This document shows, piece by piece, positions 33,311-48,533 of a stretch of 64,000 nucleotides of DNA. Every line of letters begins with the position of its first letter. Position 1 is the first letter of the stretch. Source of the stretch: an uncultured Planctomycetia bacterium (lineage in GTDB: Bacteria > Planctomycetota > UBA8108 > UBA1146); contig CAZSDP010000003.1 in assembly GCA_964605665.1 (NCBI GenBank), positions 24,941 through 88,940 on the forward strand, read 5' to 3'. The notes under the pieces were generated by a model. It was given only the letters and a program-made list of their open reading frames with translations, ran no database searches and had not been told where the DNA came from. A program made the position numbers and the translations under genes.

Positions 33311-34324
33311 ATGCGTCTTCCCCGTGCTTCTCAGCCAGCTCAACTCAAAGCGTTTGCACTGATCTTGGCTGGCCTTCTCGTCTACTCCACGCCGACCTGG
33401 TCTCAGGACGACACCTCAGCTGCCGAAGAAACGGTCGATATTCCGTGGGTCCTCGATTTCGCAAAGGCAAAGGAACAAGCGAAAGGTGAAGGGAAAGATC
33501 TGCTGATCAACTTCACCGGCAGCGATTGGTGTGGGTGGTGCAAGCGTCTCGAGGGGGAAGTCTTCAGCAAGAAAGAGTTCCTCGACGAGGCGGCGAAGAA
33601 GTACGTCTTCGTCTATCTCGACTTTCCGATGAATGAAGAAGCCAAGGCGAAGGTTGTCGACGAAAAGCTCAATGAAGAGCTCCGCACTTCCTACGGAGTC
33701 CAAGGGTTCCCCACGATCATCCTCACCGATCAGGGCGGCAACCCATTTGGCCGCACCGGATATCAACCGGGAGGTCCGACCGCGTACAATGAGCATCTCG
33801 CCAAGTTGCAAGGGGATGGCGCAAAGGTGAAGGAGTTGATCGCGGCCGGAGACGCCGTCTCCGACGAGCAACTCTCCGCAGCATTTCCATTCCTGATGTC
33901 GCAGGAGCTGATTTCATACTCCGGCTACTCCCACCTGCTCGACCAGGCGGAGAAGATCCCCGCCCTCAGCCAAGAGGTTGCTGCTTACCGAAATAACCAG
34001 AAGCTCAACTCGATGCTTTCCCAGCCAGAACCGGACTGGGATCAGGTGCACGCGTTCCTCGATACGGAAGGGCTCGCCGGCCCCGACTTCCTCAACGCCT
34101 GTTGGGCGACCGCGACGATGTATTTGGCGGAGAAGCATCAATTCTTGGCGGCGATCAAGGTGCTGGAGAAGATGCTGCAAGACCCGATCCTCAAAGACAA
34201 CGCACAGGGTCAGAAGATGATCAATGACAAGATTGCCGAACTGCGGGAATCGGAAAAGAACCACGACGACGATCACGACCACGATGACGACCATTCCCAC
34301 GACGGTCACGATCACGGCGGATAA
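33311..34324 (+). CDS. Periplasmic thioredoxin-fold protein (WCGWC motif; Thioredoxin_7-like) with a helical C-terminal domain and a His/Asp-rich tail
   Basis: AAGGAG SD 8 nt upstream of the ATG. Signal peptide. DLLINFTGSDWCGWCKRLE...GFPTIILTD is a thioredoxin fold with a CxxC. The C-terminus is ESEKNHDDDHDHDDDHSHDGHDHGG. Confidence 0.7.
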   Translation: MRLPRASQPAQLKAFALILAGLLVYSTPTWSQDDTSAAEETVDIPWVLDFAKAKEQAKGEGKDLLINFTGSDWCGWCKRLEGEVFSKKEFLDEAAKKYVFVYLDFPMNEEAKAKVVDEKLNEELRTSYGVQGFPTIILTDQGGNPFGRTGYQPGGPTAYNEHLAKLQGDGAKVKELIAAGDAVSDEQLSAAFPFLMSQELISYSGYSHLLDQAEKIPALSQEVAAYRNNQKLNSMLSQPEPDWDQVHAFLDTEGLAGPDFLNACWATATMYLAEKHQFLAAIKVLEKMLQDPILKDNAQGQKMINDKIAELRESEKNHDDDHDHDDDHSHDGHDHGG

Positions 34325-34585: not shown

Positions 34586-36358
34586 GTGCCGAACAGCAAC
34601 GAGGCCACCGCTACCGCCTCCGGAAGTCGCATCTGCGCTCCTGGTCAGAAGCCGGCGATGAAGCGATCACGTTCGAGCCGCTGGCGGATGTGGACTCTCA
34701 TCAGCGTTCACATTCTTTTCGTGATCCACCTCACCCATTGGTTGACCACTGGACGCACTCTCTCTCCGGTCGAGCCCTCGGAGTCGATGTTCTTCATCGA
34801 GCGAGGGGAGCTCAATGCCGGGTTTGTCTTTTTTGCTTCGACGTTGCTTTTGACCCTGATCTTCGGCCGGTTCTTCTGTGGCTGGGGGTGTCATGTTGTC
34901 GCCCTCCAGGATCTCTGCGGGGCCATCATGAAGAAGTGCGGAGTCCGCCCTAAACTCTTCAAATCGCGCTTCCTGATGTATGTCCCATTGATCATCGGCT
35001 TCGAGATGTTCATCTGGCCTTCGATTCAAATCCACCTCCTCGGCCCCCCTTCTGGAATCATCTCCGACCTCGACTGGGTCGCGTGGCTCGACGGAATCCC
35101 CGCCGCCGGCTGGGTCTTTTCCAATCACCTGATGACGACCGGGTTTTGGGACACATTCGCGGGACCTTGGATGGCGATTCCATTTCTTGGAATCTGCGGA
35201 TTCGCGGTGGTCTACTTCCTTGGGGCAAAGGGATTCTGCACCTATGGTTGCCCCTACGGCGCCTTTTTCGCCGGCGCGGATCGGCTCGCACCGGGGAAGA
35301 TCGTGGCGAATCTCGATGCTTGTGAAAAGTGCGGTCATTGCACCGCCAGCTGCACCTCAAATGTGAGGGTCCATGAGGAGATTCAAGTCTACGAAAAGGT
35401 GGTCTCCCCCGGTTGCATGAAGTGCCTCGACTGCGTGAGCGTCTGCCCCACCGGAGCGCTCTCATTCGGCATGACCACCCCCAAGCTCTTCACGAAACCG
35501 ATCGAAGGGCGAGCTCCAAAAGCGAAGCGATACGATCTGACGATGCGAGAAGAGTTGGTCTACTTCCTGCTCTTCTTTGCGATTCGCTATGCATGGAGGT
35601 CGGTCTACCACGAGGTGCCGATGTTGATGGCGACTGGAATCGCCGGCTGCCTCACCTTCTTGGTTTGGAAGAGTGTCCGCACCTTCCGCGATCGTGACGT
35701 CCGCTTCCTCAAATACCCTCTGAAAAGCGGTGGCCAGGTCGTTCGTCGCGGTCAATTCGTCCGATTTGCGACCTTCGCTCTTCTCCTGCTGACCGTCATC
35801 CTCGGGATCAGCAAATGGCATCAGGAGCAAGCGGAGTGGCAATACTCCCGCCTCGCTCTGCGCAACGTCAATATGGACAACGTACTCCTGGTCGGCCTGC
35901 CACCGGTCAACGATCAAGCTCGCGCCATCGCAGCCCGTGGAGCAGCGCATTTGAGATTGCTCCGGACGATCGGCAACGGGGGGCTCGCTTTGCTTCCTCA
36001 ACCGGATGAACTCCCGATCGAGCAGCGGCTCGGATACTTCTGGGTGATCGCCGGTGATCTCCCGGCAGCGCAAGCCTCTTGGGAAAAAGACCTCCCCGAA
36101 AACCAGAGCGGGGAACTCGCCGCCCGCTATGCCCAGCTGATCTTCCGGCGGTCGTATGACTCCTTTGCCGCCGGAGATCTCGACGGTGCCATCGCGATCG
36201 TTTCAGGAGGGTTGACGCATCTCCCGAACAGCCCATTTCTCGCCGACAAGTTGAGCGTCCTGTACGGTCAAAAGGGAGATCGCACCGCCTCCGACGAGTG
36301 GCGCAAGAAGGCGAATCAGCTCCAAGCGGAAGTACAACGACAATCGACTTCACAGTAG
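34586..36358 (+). CDS. Polyferredoxin-type 4Fe-4S membrane protein (NapH/MauN/COG0348-like) with a C-terminal soluble helical (TPR-like) domain
   Basis: FFCGWGCH, CTYGCPYG, CEKCGHCTASC and CMKCLDCVSVCP motifs interleaved with transmembrane segments. The start is uncertain; the Met at 34658 is also possible. Confidence 0.65.
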   Translation: MPNSNEATATASGSRICAPGQKPAMKRSRSSRWRMWTLISVHILFVIHLTHWLTTGRTLSPVEPSESMFFIERGELNAGFVFFASTLLLTLIFGRFFCGWGCHVVALQDLCGAIMKKCGVRPKLFKSRFLMYVPLIIGFEMFIWPSIQIHLLGPPSGIISDLDWVAWLDGIPAAGWVFSNHLMTTGFWDTFAGPWMAIPFLGICGFAVVYFLGAKGFCTYGCPYGAFFAGADRLAPGKIVANLDACEKCGHCTASCTSNVRVHEEIQVYEKVVSPGCMKCLDCVSVCPTGALSFGMTTPKLFTKPIEGRAPKAKRYDLTMREELVYFLLFFAIRYAWRSVYHEVPMLMATGIAGCLTFLVWKSVRTFRDRDVRFLKYPLKSGGQVVRRGQFVRFATFALLLLTVILGISKWHQEQAEWQYSRLALRNVNMDNVLLVGLPPVNDQARAIAARGAAHLRLLRTIGNGGLALLPQPDELPIEQRLGYFWVIAGDLPAAQASWEKDLPENQSGELAARYAQLIFRRSYDSFAAGDLDGAIAIVSGGLTHLPNSPFLADKLSVLYGQKGDRTASDEWRKKANQLQAEVQRQSTSQ

Positions 36359-36413: not shown

Positions 36414-37384
36414 TCAGCTGGGACTTTCTTCGGTGAGTTCGAGGAAGATCTCTTCCAAGCTCGGTCCTTCGCGGAAGCTCTTCGGCGTGAGACCTCGCTT
36501 CAACGTCAGCTCGAGCACGGCGGCGATCGCCTCCGCTGGATCTGAAGAGTCGTCCAGATTGAGGTGGAATCGTCGGTCAGCGACGTGCTCGGCAGCGGAC
36601 ACCGCAGAGACTGAGCGATAGGCTTCGAGATCCTCTTCAGTCGGAGCCGTGGCAAACTCAAGTTCGATCCGGCGACGAGCACTCATCATCGCCTCGGGCG
36701 TCCCGACCGCCTTCACCTGGCCGCGATCGAGAATCCCCACATCATCGCAAAGATCCTCGAGCTCGAAGAGATTGTGTGAACTGACCACCACCGTGGAGTG
36801 CTCAGAGAGATCAGCGATCACCTCGCGAATCCGCTTGGCATTCCGTGGATCCAATCCCGCCGTCGGCTCGTCGAGGAAGATCAATTCCGGTGACCCGAGA
36901 AACGCCTGCGCGATTCCTAACCTCTTCGCCATCCCATGGGAGAGGACCGACACTCCCCGCTCGAGATAACTTCCCAACCCGACTCGGGTGAGCGCTGCCG
37001 CCACTTCATCCCGAGCCACCCGACGAGAAGCCCCCTGTAGTCGGCGATAAAACACCAATTGATCGAGGATCGAGAGGTTTCGGTCGAAGAGCGCATCTTG
37101 CGGAAGGATGGAGACTCGGCCGAGTAGATCGGGACTCTCCGGAGGCAACCCATCCAAGATCTCGATCTTTCCTCCATCCGGCTTGAGAAAGCCCGCGATG
37201 ATCGAGAAGAGGGTCGTCTTTCCCGCTCCATTCGGTCCGACGAGACCGAAAATGCTCTTCGTTGGCACATCGAAGGAAACTTGATCGAGAGCCTTGACGG
37301 AACCGAACGATCGCGTCACCTCCTCAACCCGTAAACCGAAGGAGGGCGGCTTCTCTCGAGAGGCGCTGGCAGCAGGCTGATTCA
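36414..37384 (-). CDS. ABC transporter ATP-binding protein
   Basis: Walker A GLVGPNGAGKTT, signature LSHGMAKRLGIA, Walker B LIFLDEPTAGLD. The track ORF extends to 37727 but overlaps the upstream permease. A GTG preceded by GGAGGG near 37384 gives a typical N-terminal length. Confidence 0.75.
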
Positions 37385-38305
37385 CAGGTCCCTCCTCTTG
37401 AAGAGAAAGAGCCCGATTGCGAGGTATGCGACGGTGTAGCCGAGGCAACCGAGACTCGCGTGAATCGCCTGTTCCGTTTCGGGGTGGAAGAGTCGATGGC
37501 CAATTCCCCAAGGTGACAGATAGATGATCTTCCCCAACGGCTCCCACGCTTCCATCGCCAAGAACGCGATCGCGGGCACTCCCGGAATGATCACACTGGT
37601 CAAGACCAAGCTGCCAAATGGTGAGGCGACATTCGCCGAGATCAGGGAACAGAGAGCGACATAAGGTAAACTGAGGATCATAAAGGCGATGATTCCTCTC
37701 ACTCCCCACGAGGAGAGCTCGGTCCAAGTATAGAGGGCTCTTCCGCTGTCAGGATCTTCGAGCCGCAGCCCGCTGTAGACCACCACCGCGGCGAGCACCG
37801 CAGAAACCAACACCCAGGTAAAGATCGTCATCCCCAAGAAACGACCGAGGAATAGCTCACCCCGACTGACCCGTAACAGTTGGTAACGAATCGCGCCATA
37901 TTGCAGATCACCGCTCAGTTGATTGAATGCCCCCACCGCAATCAAGAGGGGAATCGCCAACATCTCGATGGCGAAGACCCCGGAGAGCATCGCCGGCTGA
38001 TCTTGCAGTAGGTAGACCGCCCATGTCCCATACTCCTGCATCGATTCTTGCTGCTCACCCATATTAAGGAGCTCTCCAAAGGAGGCTTGGAGGGAAGCCG
38101 CAGCGAGCATGAAACGAAGACTCTGTTCGAGTAAATCGAGCGTTTCTTTCAGGGGAAAAATCCCCGATTCGAAGACCGACAGAAGCGGCTCGATCACGAG
38201 CAAACCGAGCACAAAGGTGAGAAAGACATAGGAGATCCCAGTTCCGTTGCGCAAGAACGCTGGGAACGAGTAACGGATCACCAATCCGATGCGCCGTATG
38301 CTCAT
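37382..38305 (-). CDS. ABC-2-type transporter permease (6 predicted TM segments)
   Basis: A hydrophobic multi-pass protein immediately upstream of, and overlapping, the ATPase gene. Confidence 0.6.
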   Translation of the reverse strand: MSIRRIGLVIRYSFPAFLRNGTGISYVFLTFVLGLLVIEPLLSVFESGIFPLKETLDLLEQSLRFMLAAASLQASFGELLNMGEQQESMQEYGTWAVYLLQDQPAMLSGVFAIEMLAIPLLIAVGAFNQLSGDLQYGAIRYQLLRVSRGELFLGRFLGMTIFTWVLVSAVLAAVVVYSGLRLEDPDSGRALYTWTELSSWGVRGIIAFMILSLPYVALCSLISANVASPFGSLVLTSVIIPGVPAIAFLAMEAWEPLGKIIYLSPWGIGHRLFHPETEQAIHASLGCLGYTVAYLAIGLFLFKRRDL

Positions 38306-38312
38306 CGATCTC

Positions 38313-38786
38313 CTATCTCACCAGGTCTCGTCGGAACACGGTGTGAATCACCACCCCCAAGAAAACCGGGTAGAAGACAGTACGGATCAACCCGATTCCG
38401 AGATCGCGGATGTAGCTCTCCGGCATCCACGCCAAAATGCAAGCGACGGAAACCAGGTCGCAGATCACGTACAGCGTCGTGATGTGCTTCCCCCACACTC
38501 GTTTGCGTCTCAAATACCCAAATCCGGAAATGAAGAGGAGAAGTGCGGAGAGCAGCATCAGACCACCGATCAGAATGATGACCGGTGGAGAGACTTCGAC
38601 GAGTTCTTGAATCCGTCGACCGTCTCCGAAATCTTCTTCGCTTTTCAGCAAATACGGCGCAAAGACAAACCGCTGCAACAAGAATCCCGCAGCACTGAGC
38701 AGCTGAAGAAATGAAAGGAGGAAGTTGATCACCGCGAGCGCAGTCAACCCACTCGGTCGATCGGTTGTCGCCATCGAAGCGCTCAC
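38313..38786 (-). CDS. Small integral membrane protein (4 TM), first gene of the ABC transporter operon
   Basis: 157 aa with four hydrophobic helices and an 8-nt gap to the permease gene. There is no recognisable motif. Confidence 0.45.
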   Translation of the reverse strand: MSASMATTDRPSGLTALAVINFLLSFLQLLSAAGFLLQRFVFAPYLLKSEEDFGDGRRIQELVEVSPPVIILIGGLMLLSALLLFISGFGYLRRKRVWGKHITTLYVICDLVSVACILAWMPESYIRDLGIGLIRTVFYPVFLGVVIHTVFRRDLVR

Positions 38787-39101
38787 TTTATGAAGAGAGG
38801 TGGGACGGACTCGAACAACCTATCGACACCCACTGAGATGCCAACGCGATCCCGGGAACGGGAAAACAGCAGCACCCAGCGGCGCGATCTTCATAGAGTT
38901 TTCCTGAGAAGGCAAGCCAGACCTTCTGCTGGGCGAGTCATCAAGGTTTGAGCTCCGATCGTCGCGGCCAACGCTGCCGCCAGCGCGGCTTGTTGAGCTG
39001 CGAGGATCTCACATCGCCTGCCCACGTCAATTTCTCTCGCTTGAAGTACGCTCAAGCGACTCACCCGGCTCTTCGAGATGAGTCGCGGCAGGGTGCATCG
39101 A

Positions 39102-39539
39102 TCAGTCTTCTAAGAGAAGCTCTAATTCGGAGACATGTTGAGACTCCAGCGTCACCTGCGCTCGAGCAAATTCTTCGAGAACCACATCATTGGTCCCTTC
39201 TACTCGCTCGAGTAGTTCGCGGTACGCATCGAGTGCCGCCTTCTCGAAAACCAAAGCGGTCCTCAACGCCTCGGTCCCCCTCGCTCGCTCGGGCGGAAGA
39301 TCGATCTTCACCGACAGAGTTGGAGTCTCGCCGAGTTGCACGATCTTCTCTGCCACCAATTGAGCGTGCTCGATCGTCTCCTCCATATTTTCGAGGAGGA
39401 TCTTCCGAACAAGAAGACGGTCCATCCCCTTCAAGGTCACCGCCAAATGGAGATAGCGAAGAGAAGCCTCGACCTCTTCTGCATACAGTTCGTTGAGTCG
39501 AGCGAGAGCTTCCTCGCGGGTGATCGGGGTCTCACTCAT
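39102..39539 (-). CDS. Ferritin-like (bacterioferritin/Dps-type four-helix-bundle) protein
   Basis: The start at MSETPITREE has a GGAGGAGGG SD. Ferritin-like helical pattern (EASLRYLHLAV...EETIEHAQLVAEKI...ALVFEKAALDAYRE). It overlaps the DtxR-like gene stop by 8 nt. Confidence 0.6.
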   Translation of the reverse strand: MSETPITREEALARLNELYAEEVEASLRYLHLAVTLKGMDRLLVRKILLENMEETIEHAQLVAEKIVQLGETPTLSVKIDLPPERARGTEALRTALVFEKAALDAYRELLERVEGTNDVVLEEFARAQVTLESQHVSELELLLED

Positions 39540-40083
39540 CTGAAGTCCCTCCTCCATCGGCTTTCTCTGCATTCGAGATTTCACGGGTGAGCGCGTCGAC
39601 CTCTTCAGAGGGAAAACTCTCGCTCTCCCCTCGTCGGCCGAACTTCCGTAACTCGGAGATGAACGCGGTTCCTTCGGGGGTACCGGAGCGAAGGAAGAGC
39701 AGAGCGCGACTCGCCCGCGCAGCAGTCTCATCCGAAACAAGATGTTCGATCTTGCACGTGTCTTGATCTGCTTGTTCCTCAGAAACCCCCAAGAGGTCGA
39801 TAAACAGCTGCTTGAGAACCAACTTCTTCGCCATCACCCCGCGGGCGATCTGAGCCCCCTCTTCGGAGAGACCGAGGAAGCGACGCTCATCCTCGGTGAC
39901 CAGACCGCGCCCTTTGAGCCCCTTCAAGGTGACCGAGACACTACCCCGAGTGATGTCGAGGAGGCGAGCGACGTCAGAGACCCGCGCGTAGCCAAACTCG
40001 TCGAGGAGCTCGCTGATCGCGACGAGGTGGTGGGCCGCGGAGTGGCTCACCGGGTTTTGATCGAATTCCCGCCAATCGTGCAC
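39532..40083 (-). CDS. DtxR/MntR-family metal-dependent transcriptional regulator
   Basis: HTH HHLVAISELLDEFGYARVSDVARLLDITRGSVSVTLKGLKGRGLV, followed by the metal-binding/dimerisation region KKLVLKQLFIDLLGVSEEQADQDTCKIEHLVSDE. The start was moved to a GTG at about 40083 (GAAGGA SD); the track ORF runs to 40209 and would swallow the palindrome at 40170. Confidence 0.7.
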   Translation of the reverse strand: MHDWREFDQNPVSHSAAHHLVAISELLDEFGYARVSDVARLLDITRGSVSVTLKGLKGRGLVTEDERRFLGLSEEGAQIARGVMAKKLVLKQLFIDLLGVSEEQADQDTCKIEHLVSDETAARASRALLFLRSGTPEGTAFISELRKFGRRGESESFPSEEVDALTREISNAEKADGGGTSDE

Positions 40084-40169
40084 GGGGAGTCCTTCCGGCT
40101 GCGGGATCGAGGATGTCCCCACCCTCACCCTGCGATACGACGCCACTTCGAACTGATCGAAGGGGAGTG

Positions 40170-40189
40170 TTGTTTGAGACGCCAAACAA
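40170..40189. promoter_or_regulatory. 20-bp palindrome TTGTTTG-AGACGC-CAAACAA (candidate operator) upstream of the DtxR-like gene, in the region divergent from feoA
   Basis: Perfect 7-bp inverted arms. The same TTGTTTG-N6-CAAACAA architecture recurs at 48514-48533. Confidence 0.5.
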
Positions 40190-40339
40190 CTTGACGCCTC
40201 GCCAACCAATTCCGTAGGATACCGATCGGCGAACTCAAGATCCTCAACGAAGTTGTTGATTCCCGAAGAAATTCAGCGAGGGAAGCTGCGGACTGGGTAC
40301 TCGCCTGAACATCGATCCCCCAACTCGGTATCTCTCTAA

Positions 40340-40475
40340 TTTGGAGTCTCCTTGATTCGGAGTCCCCCGAGTTCGGTGCCTCCCAAATGTGGAGATTCCG
40401 ACGTGGAGTCTCGACTCGGGGACTGCAGTTTTTGAGTCTGCAGCACTGGAGTCTGCAGCGCTGGAGTCTGCAGTG
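40340..40475. repeat. Array of nine direct repeats with 14-16 bp spacing and core GGAGTC(TGCAG), in the divergent dtxR-like/feoA promoter region
   Basis: GGAGTC-like cores occur at 40343, 40359, 40375 (GGTGCC), 40391 (GGAGAT), 40405, 40419, 40434, 40448 and 40463. The last three are near-perfect GAGTCTGCAGC(A/G)CTG units. Confidence 0.6.
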
Positions 40476-40602
40476 ACCGTTGAAAGTTCTACGGAGGTCC
40501 TCGGGAAAGTATCGAGCGGCCGGTTGGAACGCAAGTGAGCGGCAACGACGTCGGTCTTTCCTTTTGATTCGCACGTTGAGGAGTACAGACGTGAGCAAAG
40601 CG

Positions 40603-40899
40603 ATGGAGCCGACCCCCTCCCACGGCGATTCCTCCTCACCACCTTCAACTCGACCTGGTGATGTCCCCCTCGCCCAGCTCCCAATTGGAGCGGAAGGGAT
40701 CCTCACCAGCGATCGGCTTTGCCCAGAGGATCGCGCACTGCTGAATGCGATCGGCCTCGCCGAACACTCTTCGGTGCGCGTCTGTCGCCAAGGGGAACCT
40801 TGTATCGTCGAAGTGCACACCACCAGGGTGGCACTCGCCCAGGAGATCGCCCGTCAGATCTGGGTCTCTCCGTCAAATTCTCAGGTCGCCTCCCAGTGA
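40603..40899 (+). CDS. feoA: Ferrous iron transport protein A (FeoA)
   Basis: FeoA/SH3-like pattern LAQLPIGAEGILTSD...ALLNAIGLAEHSSVRVCRQGEPCIVEV...RVALAQEIARQIWV. A GTG start at 40591 with a GAGGAG SD is also possible. The track ORF starts at 40480. Confidence 0.7.
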   Translation: MEPTPSHGDSSSPPSTRPGDVPLAQLPIGAEGILTSDRLCPEDRALLNAIGLAEHSSVRVCRQGEPCIVEVHTTRVALAQEIARQIWVSPSNSQVASQ

Positions 40900-40974
40900 C
40901 CGCGGAAGGAAACCGAGAGTGATCGACACTTCTCCAAGTGAGCGCCGTGTGACACCGAAATCGGATCTGATCCG

Positions 40975-42957
40975 GTGACTGAGACACCAGCCACCACGAC
41001 TCAACGGCCCGGGGCCGCGGCATCGGCGCGTCAGATCGCGCTGCTCGGAAATCCCAACACTGGGAAAACCAGCCTCTTCAACCGCCTTTGCGGTCTTCGA
41101 GCGCACGTCGCAAACTACCCCGGCATCACTGCCGATGCCCGTCGTGGCCATGCCAAGATCTCCGGCGAGAAGGTCCAATTCATCGACCTTCCCGGAACCT
41201 ATTCTCTCGAACTGGAGCTCCCCGAAAGCCGCCTCTGCCGAGATTGGATCAGCGGAAAGCTCGGTGAACCAGCCCCCGACTTGGTGATCACTGTCCTCGA
41301 TGCTTCGAATTTGATCCGGAATCTGCCGCTTCTCGCCGAAGCGAGGCGGGCAGGCCTCCCGATCGTCGTCGCTCTGACGATGCTCGATCTCGCCAAACAG
41401 CGCGGTCACACCGTCGATCCAAAATTGCTGTCAGAAGAACTGGGAGTCCCGGTGATCGCGGTGAATCCACGCCGGGGCAAGGGAGTCCCTGAGCTGCTAC
41501 AGCAGCTGGGCGAAGTGACCACGTCGGGATCAGACCAGCTCGGAAAAGAGATCGAGTCCACCGAGAACTGGGCTGCCACCGTCACCGACCGAGTGACCAC
41601 GAAGTCGAAGAACACCTCCGATCAGCGGACAAGACGACTCGATCGTCTTTTCACCCATCCCGTGACAGGAGTCTTCACCTTTCTGCTGACGATGGGGATG
41701 CTCTTCTGGTTGATCTTCGAACTGGCGGGAACCCCGATGGGTTGGATCGAGCAGATCTTCGGTTCCCTCGGGAGTCTCTTGACGCAAATCCTCCCCGAAG
41801 GCTTGGTGCGAGATCTCTTGGTCGAAGGGGTGGTGGGAGGAATCGCCGGAACGGTCGTCTTCCTTCCACAGATTTGTCTACTCTTCTTCCTGATCACGCT
41901 GCTGGAAGACACCGGCTACTTGGCCCGCGCTGCATTCGTGGCCAACCGGCTCTTGAGGCCCTTTGGTCTACCTGGTCAGGCTTTTGTCCCGCTCCTCTCC
42001 AGCCATGCGTGCGCGATACCTGGGATCATGTGCAGCCGACTGATCCCCGATCGACAGGACCGCCTCGCGACGATCTTGGTCGCCCCCTTTCTCAGTTGCA
42101 GTGCCCGACTACCGGTCTACACCCTACTGATCGCGTTCCTCTTCGCGGATCGGCCCGAGTTGGCCGGAGTCGCCTTTGCCGGGTGTTACCTTCTCGGCGG
42201 TCTCGCGGCTCTCGTCACCGCGCTGATCTTCAGAAAAACCCTCTTGCGCGGTCGAAGCCGTCCCCTCGTCCTCGAGTTGCCCCCCTATCAGCGCCCATCC
42301 TTCAGGAACGCGGTCCGGGTTGCATTCGACCGGGGAGTGACCTTCCTCGTCAAAGCGGGAACGGTGATCCTTCTCATTTCGGTGGTCCTTTGGTGGCTCT
42401 CAGCATTTCCCAGAGTTGATGAAAGCAGCGCCGTTGTCGATCTGCGAAGCGAGGCAACCTCGGTCGAGTCGGTCGATCCAGACCGAGCTGCCGAGCTGAC
42501 GATCGCCGCGAATCGGCTTGCTGATCGAGAAGCGCTCTCCGCCAGTTTCAGCGGTCGTCTCGGACACTTGGTCGAACCGGTCTTCGCCCCGATCGGCGCC
42601 GACTGGCAACTCTCCATCGCAATTTTGTCGAGCTTTGCTGCCCGAGAGGTCTTCGTCTCGGCACTTCTGGTGACCCTCGGGGGAGACCCAGAGGCAGAAG
42701 GATCGCTCGTCCTCGACACCATTCGCCAGGTTCAACGCGATGATGGAACCGCGCTGCTCACCTTCGCCTCCGCTTTTTCCCTCCTCGTCTTCTACGTCCT
42801 GGCGATGCAGTGCCTTCCCACTCTCGCGGTCACCCGGCGAGAAGCAGGGGGTTGGCGTTGGGCGATGCTGCAGTTCTTCTATATGTCGATCGTCGCTTGG
42901 GTCCTCGCCGCGATCACCTATCGCATCGTGGGCGGGATGACAGGAACCGGTGGATGA
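40975..42957 (+). CDS. feoB: Ferrous iron transport protein B (FeoB)
   Basis: N-terminal G-domain IALLGNPNTGKTSLFNRL...DLPGTYSL, followed by a large polytopic membrane domain. GTG start. Confidence 0.9.
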   Translation: MTETPATTTQRPGAAASARQIALLGNPNTGKTSLFNRLCGLRAHVANYPGITADARRGHAKISGEKVQFIDLPGTYSLELELPESRLCRDWISGKLGEPAPDLVITVLDASNLIRNLPLLAEARRAGLPIVVALTMLDLAKQRGHTVDPKLLSEELGVPVIAVNPRRGKGVPELLQQLGEVTTSGSDQLGKEIESTENWAATVTDRVTTKSKNTSDQRTRRLDRLFTHPVTGVFTFLLTMGMLFWLIFELAGTPMGWIEQIFGSLGSLLTQILPEGLVRDLLVEGVVGGIAGTVVFLPQICLLFFLITLLEDTGYLARAAFVANRLLRPFGLPGQAFVPLLSSHACAIPGIMCSRLIPDRQDRLATILVAPFLSCSARLPVYTLLIAFLFADRPELAGVAFAGCYLLGGLAALVTALIFRKTLLRGRSRPLVLELPPYQRPSFRNAVRVAFDRGVTFLVKAGTVILLISVVLWWLSAFPRVDESSAVVDLRSEATSVESVDPDRAAELTIAANRLADREALSASFSGRLGHLVEPVFAPIGADWQLSIAILSSFAAREVFVSALLVTLGGDPEAEGSLVLDTIRQVQRDDGTALLTFASAFSLLVFYVLAMQCLPTLAVTRREAGGWRWAMLQFFYMSIVAWVLAAITYRIVGGMTGTGG

Positions 42958-45077: not shown

Positions 45078-45665
45078 TCAACGATCGTCCCCTGAAGCCT
45101 CAGGAAACATCGGATTCGCCGGTGGTGCCTCCGGCCGCCCCCGAACTCGCCTGACCCAAGGAAACAGCCACATCTCTCCCAAGACCAAGAGTGATCCGAG
45201 CGCCAGACTGATCAACAGCGCACTTCCACTGCAGATCAACAACCAAGACTTCAAATCGCTGGGCGTCGCTCGCAATAACCATGGGACCCCGAGGGTTCCC
45301 AAGAGCCCACCGAAGCCGAGGAGAACCAGTCCGATCTTACCGCGGGGGTGCAGTGGAGTGAGGGCCACCAAGTGGAAGACGACGAAGAGGACCATCGCCA
45401 AACTGAAGATGTGATCATGAACGAAGGCGAGGAGTTCTCGGTCCCCTTTTGCCACGCGAAACTCAGTTGCGGAGAGATCGTCTTCGTTACCCAAAACCCA
45501 CTCTTGTGCGCTCTTCGAACCAAATCCTCCGGCGCGGCTGGAGTATTGCAGAGCCGCGACCACGACTCCGACCAAGACACAAAGTAGAAAGCAACTCACC
45601 AAAACCCGTGTCGGACGATCCGCCCGGGCGAGAGTGAATCCCTTCTCCTTGTAAAAGCGACTCAT
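45078..45665 (-). CDS. Integral membrane protein (4 TM), last gene of the porin/ApbE operon
   Basis: Start at MSRFYKEK, with an ATGA overlap with the upstream gene. Four hydrophobic helices with His residues in TM2 (FVHDHIF...VVFHLVAL). Confidence 0.45.
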   Translation of the reverse strand: MSRFYKEKGFTLARADRPTRVLVSCFLLCVLVGVVVAALQYSSRAGGFGSKSAQEWVLGNEDDLSATEFRVAKGDRELLAFVHDHIFSLAMVLFVVFHLVALTPLHPRGKIGLVLLGFGGLLGTLGVPWLLRATPSDLKSWLLICSGSALLISLALGSLLVLGEMWLFPWVRRVRGRPEAPPANPMFPEASGDDR

Positions 45666-47113
45666 CGCGCCTCGGCAATCGAGATGCGTTTCACCGCGCG
45701 ATCTCGGGTCGCTCGTTCCGTCTCTCCCACGCCGAGAACCGCAAGGGCGGTCGACCAAGCATCTGCGGTGGTGGCGTCCTCGGCGAAGACTGCGGTCAAA
45801 AGCGGGACCTCGGCGGGCTCACCAGTTTCAGGGTCGATGATATGGGAGCCACGATAACTCTCACCGGAGCAGGCGACCGATGCCCGGGTCAATTCCTCAA
45901 TCTCGAGGGCACAGTCGACCGCTCGAGGATCGACCACCGCAACCGGCCATCCTTTGCAACCCAGCGGAGGATCGAGCGCGAGGATCTGCCCTCCGAAATT
46001 GAGCAGAGCTCTCGACAACCCAAGACGATCGAGTTCTTCCGCAGCGCGATCGAGCGCAAAGCCCTTCCCGATCGCCCCGAGGTCGATTCTTTCGATACGA
46101 GGTCCGCGCGTGACGGTACCCGCCTGAGTATCGAGGTGAATCTCTTTCCACCCGCCAGCGACACGCGAGGGATCGAATGCTCCCCCACTCGCCTCTGCGA
46201 CTTCCAGAGCCCGCGCTAAACAAGTGAGCGTATCGGGATGCACCGAGACCGGTTCTCCCGGAGACGCAGCGAGAATTCGTGCGATGTCGGAACGATCCCG
46301 ACGTCCGTCGAGTTGTTGCGTCAATCGATCCACGACCGCGAAAACCGCATCGATTCCGCGACCCGCTTCCTCCCAGTTCGCCTCGATCGAGACTTCGAGG
46401 AGAGTCCCCATCGCGGGGCGACGCTCCACCCTTTCGGTCGGAACCGCTCCGAGATCAAGGGGCTGCTCCTCCCGCCAAACCAGTCGATCGAGTCCACCAT
46501 CGCGGCGAGCTTGCTCGTGAACCAGCACCAAAGCCCGTCGCACCGCGCGGATCGAAGCGCGCCCGGAAAGGGTGGCTCCGCTGATATTGATCACTTCCCG
46601 GTGCAGCCGAAGGGAGTCATCGATCCCTTTCTTTCGGAACTGCCGCAGAAAGCGCGATCGTGTGATCTCAGCACCGTGACTCTCCCGATAAACACACACG
46701 GCCACGTCTCGGACCTTTTGCTGAGGATCGAGAGATACGATGAAGGTGATCGGACGAAACTTGCCGATCTCATCGACAAATAGAGCTGTTCCCAAGGGGG
46801 AGCCATCGACCGCGAAACCGCGGTAGATGCGTTGGGGAGCATCCGATACGGAGATCCCCCTTTCCTCACGGATCGTCTGGCGACGCTCGGGTGATATGCG
46901 AATCACCGCACTCTCCAGCCGCGAGAGTTTCGGGAAAGCCCGAGCGAGCGCTTGCTCTGTCCGCAGGTGCACCTGCTCTTGGCTCCAAAGCGGATCGGTC
47001 GGCAAACCGATCGCAGTGGCGAGCATCACACCAACGAATGCCGCCAACGCGCGCGACACATTCCTGCGGGGTGGTGTTTTAGAAGTATGTCGCGACGGAG
47101 AACAAGATCGCAT
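45662..47113 (-). CDS. Fusion of an FMN-binding domain and an ApbE-family flavin transferase (FAD:protein FMN transferase)
   Basis: The N-terminus has a TM/signal followed by an FMN_bind-like segment (VSLDPQQKVRDVAVCVYRESHGAEI...INISGATLSGRA; the Ser/Thr in the xSGAT motif is the usual flavinylation site). The C-terminus has ApbE motifs (AMGTLLEVSI, AIGKGFALDRAAEEL, GGQILAL, SHIIDPETGEP). Start uncertain (47113 or 47140). Confidence 0.65.
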   Translation of the reverse strand: MRSCSPSRHTSKTPPRRNVSRALAAFVGVMLATAIGLPTDPLWSQEQVHLRTEQALARAFPKLSRLESAVIRISPERRQTIREERGISVSDAPQRIYRGFAVDGSPLGTALFVDEIGKFRPITFIVSLDPQQKVRDVAVCVYRESHGAEITRSRFLRQFRKKGIDDSLRLHREVINISGATLSGRASIRAVRRALVLVHEQARRDGGLDRLVWREEQPLDLGAVPTERVERRPAMGTLLEVSIEANWEEAGRGIDAVFAVVDRLTQQLDGRRDRSDIARILAASPGEPVSVHPDTLTCLARALEVAEASGGAFDPSRVAGGWKEIHLDTQAGTVTRGPRIERIDLGAIGKGFALDRAAEELDRLGLSRALLNFGGQILALDPPLGCKGWPVAVVDPRAVDCALEIEELTRASVACSGESYRGSHIIDPETGEPAEVPLLTAVFAEDATTADAWSTALAVLGVGETERATRDRAVKRISIAEAR

Positions 47114-48461
47114 CGTTATCCTCACGGGTATGGGACCCATCTTCTAGATTCACCTGGTAGTCGAATTTGAAGACCGTCTCCTCGATCGGGCGGAAGTTCA
47201 ATCCGAAGGTCCAACGCTGAGTCCTCTCCGAGCCGAGTTCGACATGATCGAAGCGAACCGCCGCGGTGAACGTCGATTCATCGGAGAGGAGAGAGGGAGC
47301 GGCCTTGAGGAAAGACTCCGGCATGAAGTGGTACTGGGTCTCAGCGACGAAACCCCAAAGATCATCGGGAACCCCACTGTCGCGGGCGACAGAGTCTCGC
47401 TCGATATCGGCCCGTGCAACTTCACCCCCGAAGCCCCATCCGGCGAGAGATGAGGTGAGAGCGCCCCCCTCGATCTTCCAATCGAAGGCGGAGACGAACA
47501 GGTCTCGGTCTCCTTCGGAGTCGTAGGCGCCATGGAATCCTGAAACACCCAAGTCCACCCCGAGAATCGGTGAGTATCCGACACGCCCGGTCCCAGAAAT
47601 GCCCTTGCTCCCATCCGACTTCAGAGAGGGTCGTCCACCGCGAAGCCCACTCGAAGTATTGAAGTTCGAACTGAATCCGGTCGGAGAAGTCGAGTCAGGC
47701 TCCAAGCCTTCGAAACCATTCACCGCGTAAAACTGATAGTCGAGGACCCCGGACTCACTCGTTTCATACGATCCCAACACACCGACTCCAGCGTCGGTCA
47801 ACGTGGTCGGGATCACGCTACGCGTCACCAACGGTCGATCGGTGAAGTCATTGAGGGGAGAGTCGTGGTAGAGATTGAAGCGACCGAGTGGAACGAGGAT
47901 CGCCCCTGCTCGGAAGGTGAACTCTTCCCCAACGCGCCAATCGAGTGCGGCGAATTCGACCTTGGTCGATCCATCCCCAGCGGGAGCATCACTCCCCCCA
48001 TCTTCGAACTCGATCTCCGCGGCGAAGTGAAAACGCTCGCCGAACTTCGCATCGATCAACGGCACGAAGCGGTGCTGACGAAAGGTGGGACTCGAACCGT
48101 GTTCATCTCGATACTCCAAATCGAGGTAGCCACCGATGGTGGCGGAGACCCCGCCTCGGGAAAATGTGAGGAGTGCGGCGGGGCTCTCATCTCGCGCTGA
48201 ACTCATCGCAACTCGACCCTCCGGAGCGACGCTCGGGTCGGTTTCAAGTTGCTCGATCCGTTCCTCGGCAGCGAGAAGTCGAGACCTCAAATCGGCGAGT
48301 TCGTCGGCGACCTGGTCGCGATTGTCTTCCTTCGAGCTCTCTTGCTCGGCACTGGGGGTGGAAGGTGCTCGCTCCGCGGGAGGATCAGCGAAAAGTGATC
48401 CGCCACCGACCACCAAGGCGATTGTGATCACCAGATTAAGCAGACTGAAAGAGGGCTTCAT
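47079..48461 (-). CDS. Outer-membrane beta-barrel porin (phosphate-selective porin O/P-like) with an N-terminal coiled coil
   Basis: Signal peptide MKPSFSLLNLVITIALVVGGGSLFA. Alternating amphipathic beta-strand pattern. The C-terminal residue is Phe (VATYF), as is typical of OMPs. Confidence 0.6.
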   Translation of the reverse strand: MKPSFSLLNLVITIALVVGGGSLFADPPAERAPSTPSAEQESSKEDNRDQVADELADLRSRLLAAEERIEQLETDPSVAPEGRVAMSSARDESPAALLTFSRGGVSATIGGYLDLEYRDEHGSSPTFRQHRFVPLIDAKFGERFHFAAEIEFEDGGSDAPAGDGSTKVEFAALDWRVGEEFTFRAGAILVPLGRFNLYHDSPLNDFTDRPLVTRSVIPTTLTDAGVGVLGSYETSESGVLDYQFYAVNGFEGLEPDSTSPTGFSSNFNTSSGLRGGRPSLKSDGSKGISGTGRVGYSPILGVDLGVSGFHGAYDSEGDRDLFVSAFDWKIEGGALTSSLAGWGFGGEVARADIERDSVARDSGVPDDLWGFVAETQYHFMPESFLKAAPSLLSDESTFTAAVRFDHVELGSERTQRWTFGLNFRPIEETVFKFDYQVNLEDGSHTREDNDAILFSVATYF

Positions 48462-48513: not shown

Positions 48514-48533
48514 TTGTTTGGTATGCCAAACAA
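48514..48533. promoter_or_regulatory. 20-bp palindrome TTGTTTG-GTATGC-CAAACAA (candidate operator), 53 bp upstream of the porin start codon
   Basis: Perfect 7-bp inverted arms. This is a second copy of the motif seen at 40170-40189. Confidence 0.5.

Follow-up and report, generated by a model that had tools for sequence, protein, structure and literature searches.

Bacterial intergenic minisatellites (VNTRs) are tandem repeats in which a unit of 10-100 bp is present in a few copies at an intergenic or leader site. Their alleles differ by whole units, and a gradient of decay runs along the copies. The operators of DtxR, IdeR and MntR are elements of another kind, palindromes of ~19-21 bp that overlap the promoter. 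In this study, we analysed an array of short direct repeats located between the gene of a DtxR/MntR-like regulator and the feoAB iron-uptake operon of an uncultured marine planctomycete. The array lies in a 64-kb stretch of DNA, which was analysed as a whole and is referred to here as the window. It shares all of the above features with the bacterial minisatellites; in particular, its units are arranged head to tail and fall within the 10-100 bp range, and strains differ from each other by whole units. The array is probably a minisatellite generated by slippage, which is neutral or at most modulates feoAB through the length or structure of its leader, and it is most likely not a specific binding platform.

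The feoAB locus and its repeat array

The genes flanking the array are those named in the preliminary description of this DNA. On the + strand, feoA (40591-40899; 102 aa, GTG start), with the Shine-Dalgarno sequence GAGGAG at 40578-40583, is followed by feoB (40975-42957; 660 aa). Divergent from feoAB, the - strand encodes a DtxR/MntR-family metalloregulator (39532-40083; 183 aa) and a ferritin-like protein (39102-39539; 145 aa), the gene of which overlaps the regulator gene at its end. Within its family, the regulator is only distantly related to the other members; homologues of it are annotated as originating from Planctomycetota MAGs. The same organism is represented by a public contig from a JGI metagenome, which matches the window at 99.7% identity over 8.3 kb. 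The gene calls of this contig set the two start codons at GTG 40083 and GTG 40591, so that the intergenic region measures 507 bp (40084-40590) and not 390 bp as was previously stated. Downstream of the ferritin gene, a conserved operon (36414-38786) encodes a 154-aa membrane protein without a Pfam family, an ABC-2 permease and an ABC ATPase. This operon travels with the dtxR-ferritin pair in all close relatives. In three related loci (related loci are given L numbers throughout), an extra DUF4003 gene is present between the ferritin gene and the gene for the 154-aa protein (3486-4508 in L138 and L139, 2645-3637 in L005); it is absent from the window. Another short tandem repeat, with an 18-bp period and sub-periods of 3, 6 and 12 bp (ACCACGACGACG...), was observed at 34260-34304, in the spacer just upstream of a gene for a 4Fe-4S protein (listed open reading frame 34586-36358).

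The array consists of nine units starting at 40343, 40359, 40375, 40391, 40405, 40419, 40433, 40448 and 40463, with spacings of 16, 16, 16, 14, 14, 14, 15 and 15 bp in this order. The last three units (TGAGTCTGCAGCACT, GGAGTCTGCAGCGCT and GGAGTCTGCAGTGAC; 40433-40477, + strand) are near-identical and form a young tandem repeat, the copy number of which is polymorphic (three or two). Tandem Repeats Finder identified this part as the strongest tandem repeat in the window, with a 15-bp unit (GAGTCTGCAGCACTG), 2.7 copies and 96% matches at 40434-40473. The preceding six or so units (40343-40432, + strand) are older and decayed, and their period is first 16 bp and then 14 bp. Exact GGAGTC cores are found on the + strand at 40343, 40359, 40405, 40448 and 40463, and the unit at 40433 carries TGAGTC. 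The third and fourth units (40375 and 40391) are weak, and so is the sixth (40419, GGGACTGCAG), which is recognised through its 3' half. The description of the region as nine direct repeats thus holds for the periodicity, the 14-16 bp spacing and the near-identity of the last three units, but the core is present with no more than one mismatch in only six of the nine.

The older part is significantly periodic in its own right. When 40340-40432 was analysed alone, its self-similarity at a lag of 16 was 48%, whereas dinucleotide-shuffled sequences gave 36 ± 3% at their best lag, and the observed value was reached by 1 of 1000 shuffles. The periodic array is therefore real and exceeds what is expected by chance. 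A gradient of identity runs along it, from the decayed units at the 5' side to the near-perfect units at the 3' side. Among the older units, preservation is higher in the GGAGTC core than in the remainder of the unit. This could reflect selection on the core instead of plain decay, and it is the one observation that leans towards a function.

The array stands out in the window, and no counterpart was found by the searches that follow. When all hexamers were compared, none proved as densely clustered in the window as GGAGTC and GAGTCT, of which five copies fall within 130 bp. There is no second same-strand cluster of at least three GGAGTC in the window, where the other occurrences of this hexamer are scattered. 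A short-word BLAST search with the leader for another copy of the array or of the leader returned only chance matches of 10-13 nucleotides in the window. The pattern GAGTCTGCAG-N3-7-GAGTCTGCAG was also scanned over 185,579 species genomes, a scan that did not return the source genome itself. It gave 35 matches, 33 of them in unrelated taxa. The two planctomycete matches were the ones read; both were coding repeats (e.g. PESAG), and no related non-coding array was found. The same pattern had no match in viral contigs. Dispersal of the REP or MITE type would leave further copies, and none was present in the window, which covers 64 kb of the genome, or in the pattern scans. A literature search on GGAGTC direct repeats, or on Planctomycetes with DtxR and feoB, found nothing relevant.

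Two other interpretations of this segment were considered and dropped. The array contains nine GANTC sites, which raised the idea of a methylation cluster. The window, however, contains 504 such sites compared to 233 expected; GANTC is over-represented rather than depleted, and there is hence no signature of restriction avoidance. Small open reading frames cross the array on the + strand (e.g. ATG 40387, 29 aa), and long antisense frames are present on the - strand. They have no ribosome-binding site and no Pfam match, and they are absent as conserved frames from the closest lineage without the array.

A candidate operator and promoter upstream of the array

A 20-bp dyad, TTGTTTGA-GACG-CCAAACAA (TTGTTTGAGACGCCAAACAA), is located at 40170-40189. 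It abuts a predicted sigma-70-type promoter of feoA at 40191-40220 on the + strand (-35 TTGACG, N18, -10 TAGGAT), which is the sole sigma-70-like match in the region. The conserved form of the palindrome is TTGTTTGG-N4-CCAAACAA, and this pattern occurs at two sites in the window, compared to 0.02 expected. The second site, at 48514-48533, is a perfect palindrome (TTGTTTGG-TATG-CCAAACAA) and is located ~50 bp upstream of a - strand operon encoding a 460-aa secreted porin-like protein (47079-48461) and a 492-aa FMN-bind/ApbE protein (45662-47140). Judging from this site, the porin-like/ApbE operon is probably part of the regulon of the adjacent metalloregulator.

To compare the region with that of other organisms, we collected loci that encode relatives of the regulator and located feoA and feoB in them by tblastn. 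The divergent arrangement of feoA(B) and the regulator-ferritin pair recurs in these relatives, and in all of them a module is conserved in which the palindrome is directly followed by TTGAC(N), 17-18 nucleotides and a TAGGAT-like hexamer, oriented towards feoA. The promoter part of the module (TTGAC/T, N17-18, TAGGAT-like) was seen in L124, L002, L042, L005, L045, L046 and L051, and the core of the palindrome was found upstream of the homologous regulator gene in 23 related loci. Operator, promoter and both flanks of the leader are retained in every lineage examined. It is conservation and position that single out the palindrome as the best operator candidate, and it is the probable operator of the adjacent DtxR/MntR-like regulator. 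Its sequence differs from the IdeR/DtxR consensus. Its architecture is nevertheless that of DtxR/IdeR/MntR operators: it abuts a -35 hexamer, its conservation is linked to the regulator, and it has a second site in the window. The array, in contrast, consists of direct repeats on the downstream side of the predicted promoter, lacks conservation and has no sequence in common with the palindrome. The preliminary description was right in not assigning the array to the Fur, IdeR or MntR boxes; it is the palindrome that fits the operator. A by-product of the analysis, more useful than the array itself, is a testable operator-and-promoter model for a DtxR/MntR-like regulator of marine Planctomycetota, which places one palindrome at the -35 hexamer of feoA and a second one before the porin-like/ApbE operon.

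If the predicted promoter is used, transcription would start near 40227 and feoAB would have a 5' leader of ~364 nt (40227-40590, + strand). The array would then span positions ~+117 to +251 of the leader. It is located ~150 bp from the palindrome and ends 114 nt before the feoA start codon, with no overlap with the Shine-Dalgarno sequence. The interval from the promoter to feoA is ~100-155 nt in distant relatives, ~303 nt in the lineage of L124 and ~364 nt in the window, and the leader in the window is ~200-250 nt longer than those of the more distant relatives. If feoA had a second promoter closer to its start, the array would lie upstream of that promoter. No conserved candidate for it was seen on the downstream side of the array, and inspection by eye for sigma-54 or ECF-type promoters within or after the array revealed weak partial matches only.

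The leader also contains a conserved motif, CGCAA[C/G]-N13-CGT[A/C] followed by CTTTC, at 40532-40565 in the window. The whole motif is present at matching positions of L124, L002, L005, L045 and L046, the leaders of which are otherwise unalignable; across these relatives it is located 35-65 nt upstream of the feoA start, and it has no Rfam match. It might function as an element of the RNA or as another binding site for a protein.

Alleles and relatives of the array

Relatives of the locus were found through the 90%-identity cluster of the regulator protein and through look-ups of the FeoA and ferritin of the window and of a 99%-identical FeoA; exact look-ups with the FeoB of the window found nothing. 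The lineage that carries the array is 97-100% identical across its members. Three young units are present in four assemblies (the window, L001, L122 and L129). L123 begins inside the array, at window position 40437, and is identical over the part that it covers. In three independent marine metagenome contigs (L131, L147 and L149), exactly one 15-bp unit is missing, in register. This two-unit allele also carries two linked substitutions: its last unit has GGAATC instead of GGAGTC, and immediately behind that unit GACCG is replaced by GACGG. The comparison of copy number across assemblies proposed in the preliminary description has revealed a difference, three units in four assemblies and two in three contigs. 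Strains that share the array differ by only ~1%, and conservation within the lineage is consequently uninformative on constraint.

Some members of the data set called for caution. The arrays of L001 and the window differ by single-base indels and Ns, which were considered as a sign of hypermutability. Such differences are typical of a low-quality assembly, and a similar cluster is present at 38608-38654; this candidate was rejected. L129 contains, at 1014-1278 of a low-coverage scaffold, a run of Ns, a duplicated 5' end of feoA and an unrelated insert. This scaffold is probably chimeric; its array is identical to that of the window. In L002 (GCA_032124895.1, contig JAQBCW010000032.1), tandem repeats of ~91 bp occupy positions 1-330 at the contig end, downstream of feoA, where feoB is expected. 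These repeats may have arisen in the assembly or may constitute an array of their own.

The closest other lineage (L124-L128, L132 and L134-L139) has the same regulator, ferritin, feoAB, operator, promoter and both leader flanks, yet it has no array. The array is replaced there by ~160 bp in which GGAGTC occurs once and a residual similarity of ~50% to units 2-5 remains; one degenerate CCGCAGCGGGCGCAGG stretch is found at the position of the young units. This replacement segment shows no periodicity of 15-16 bp. In each of ~80 more distant loci, the core is present at most twice upstream of the regulator gene. As judged from these comparisons, the array is confined to one marine planctomycete lineage, and its young part appears to have expanded from a single-copy ancestor.

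The surroundings of the array are mosaic. The lineage of L124 is 96.3% identical to the window over 38000-40274, on the dtxR-ferritin-ABC side, and 85.6% identical over 40496-42638, on the feoAB side. The central leader segment between these blocks (40275-40495, + strand), which contains the array, is lineage-specific and cannot be aligned with the closest other lineage. Within that lineage, L124 and L138 are 99.8% identical in feoAB and the intergenic region and 89-91% identical in dtxR and ferritin. These mosaic identities (with the change at 2500 between L124 and L138) indicate recombination junctions in or at the intergenic region. The feoAB leader is thus both a recombination junction and a fast-evolving segment.

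Origin and possible roles of the array

We propose that repeated slipped-strand or unequal-exchange duplication of a unit of ~15 bp gave rise to the array, leaving three young copies and about six decayed ones. The array would have accumulated in the poorly constrained, fast-evolving centre of an unusually long feoAB leader. Control of feoAB by metal would most likely operate through the conserved palindrome, the promoter and the neighbouring DtxR/MntR-like repressor, and the array would have no dedicated binding protein. Any effect of the array would be indirect, through the length and the hairpin content of the leader RNA, and gain or loss of units would produce variation at the strain level, not a switch. 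As it stands, the array is an ordinary finding, a strain marker rather than a control element.

The preliminary description had suggested an iteron-like platform for cooperative binding of a regulator in the divergent promoter. This suggestion was not supported: the conserved element of the region is the palindrome with its promoter, the array is located downstream of them, the closest lineage has no array, and GGAGTC is elsewhere scattered. A modified form of the idea is that the array is a DNA-level direct-repeat platform for a regulator encoded elsewhere. Such a regulator could be a repressor that forms a roadblock past the feoA promoter, or it could activate, from upstream, an unrecognised promoter nearer to feoA. 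The six cores, one of them with a mismatch, lie on one strand at multiples of ~15 bp and form the densest hexamer cluster in the window, their preservation in the older units exceeds that of the unit remainders, and the array is located in the control region of a metal-uptake operon. We nevertheless regard such a platform as unlikely, since the closest lineage manages the same genes, operator and promoter without an array, no second array was found in the window or in the species-genome scan, one allele has GGAATC in a unit and one unit fewer, and a conserved promoter downstream of the array was not seen. In addition, a period of 15 bp puts successive sites on opposite faces of the DNA helix. 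The preliminary description had named absence or variability of the array in close relatives without a change in feo expression, or random occurrence of the motif, as observations that would speak against its suggestion, and this is largely what we found: close relatives lack the array or vary in it, and the other occurrences of the motif in the window are scattered.

If the array acted at the level of RNA, its GGAGUC (GGA) motifs could be targets of the ribosome or of an RNA-binding protein, CsrA-like or other; alternatively, the array could form a structure that tunes the stability or translation of the feoAB mRNA. Leaders targeted by CsrA/Rsm and sponge RNAs likewise contain many GGA motifs in a transcribed region, with a spacing of ~15 nt, and the array, inside the leader as predicted from the promoter, has six GGAG motifs in ~135 nt. 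The array region is predicted to fold into three hairpins, more stable than those of shuffles (z = -3.5 on the + strand and -3.0 on the - strand). Such a fold is expected because the units are quasi-palindromic (CTGCAG, CAGCGCTG, GGAG-T-CTCC), and for the leader as a whole the predicted fold is not better than that of shuffles (z = -0.4). In CsrA/Rsm targets the GGA motifs are exposed in loops and one of them is at the ribosome-binding site, whereas those of the array are mostly paired in the predicted ensemble (unpaired probabilities mostly below 0.1 to 0.7), are far from the ribosome-binding site and are not conserved. The distance of the array from the start codon and the Shine-Dalgarno sequence also speaks against this reading. 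Moreover, the predicted fold is not retained in the two-unit allele, the closest lineage lacks the array altogether, and covariance models of Rfam gave no match over 39000-42000 at E-values up to 1. A terminator-like hairpin at 40407-40424 followed by TTTTT (UUUUU in the RNA; to 40433) was considered as an intrinsic attenuator, but its stem is a weak one of 6 bp and the U-run is 4 nt away from it, which is unconvincing. None of these folding predictions supports a conserved RNA element, and we give an RNA-level action little credence.

A contingency or phase-variation tract, the other suggestion of the preliminary description, would generate graded and heritable variation of feoAB expression in populations through frequent gain and loss of 15-bp units. 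Repeats in leaders or promoters are known to tune expression in other bacteria, and simple-sequence contingency loci resemble the array in that a tandem repeat is located near the start of a gene and differs in unit number between strains. The variability of the array has indeed been borne out by the in-register difference of one complete 15-bp unit between strains. We nevertheless consider a true contingency locus improbable. In the consensus assemblies there are two alleles only, each recovered in several independent assemblies, and the shorter one carries linked substitutions; this repeated recovery and linkage fit an old indel better than rapid switching. Simple-sequence contingency loci have many copies of a unit of 1-9 nt, located in a promoter spacer or a reading frame, whereas the array has just two or three perfect copies of a long unit and lies downstream of the -10 hexamer, where neither promoter spacing nor a reading frame is affected, and its alleles appear stable.

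A further reading is that the array is a recently evolved cis-regulatory platform. A DNA- or RNA-binding protein would bind it cooperatively and provide this lineage with a second input to feoAB on top of the DtxR-type operator, with the number of units tuning the response. We consider this quite doubtful. If the array did bind a factor, it would exemplify a regulatory array that tandem duplication has created very recently. It is highly improbable that the array was left behind by a small inserted element, mobile (MITE-like) or foreign, or arrived with a horizontally exchanged feoAB allele: the leader is longer than in distant relatives and its central segment coincides with the junction of the 96% and 86% identity blocks, but the window contains no second copy, the pattern scans revealed no related sequence, no terminal inverted repeats or target duplication were noticed in passing, and the leader is likewise long in the lineage without the array, where part of it is homologous to the older units.

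A slippage-generated minisatellite is thus the reading that we retain, and it can be set against the other repeat systems that the array recalls. The iterons of plasmid and phage origins also consist of several direct repeats with regular spacing. They are direct repeats of ~17-22 bp located by an initiator gene, whereas the period of the array is 14-16 bp, its site is a chromosomal metal-homeostasis locus, it is absent in close relatives, and no initiator or replication gene is present among its annotated neighbours. CRISPR arrays have repeats of 23-50 bp separated by unique spacers; the units of the array are contiguous, 15 bp long and without spacers, in agreement with the preliminary description, which had already set CRISPR aside. 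Compared to other VNTRs, the array is a previously undescribed locus of an uncultured marine planctomycete, with two alleles, and it is located in the leader of an iron-uptake operon that adjoins the gene of its own metalloregulator.
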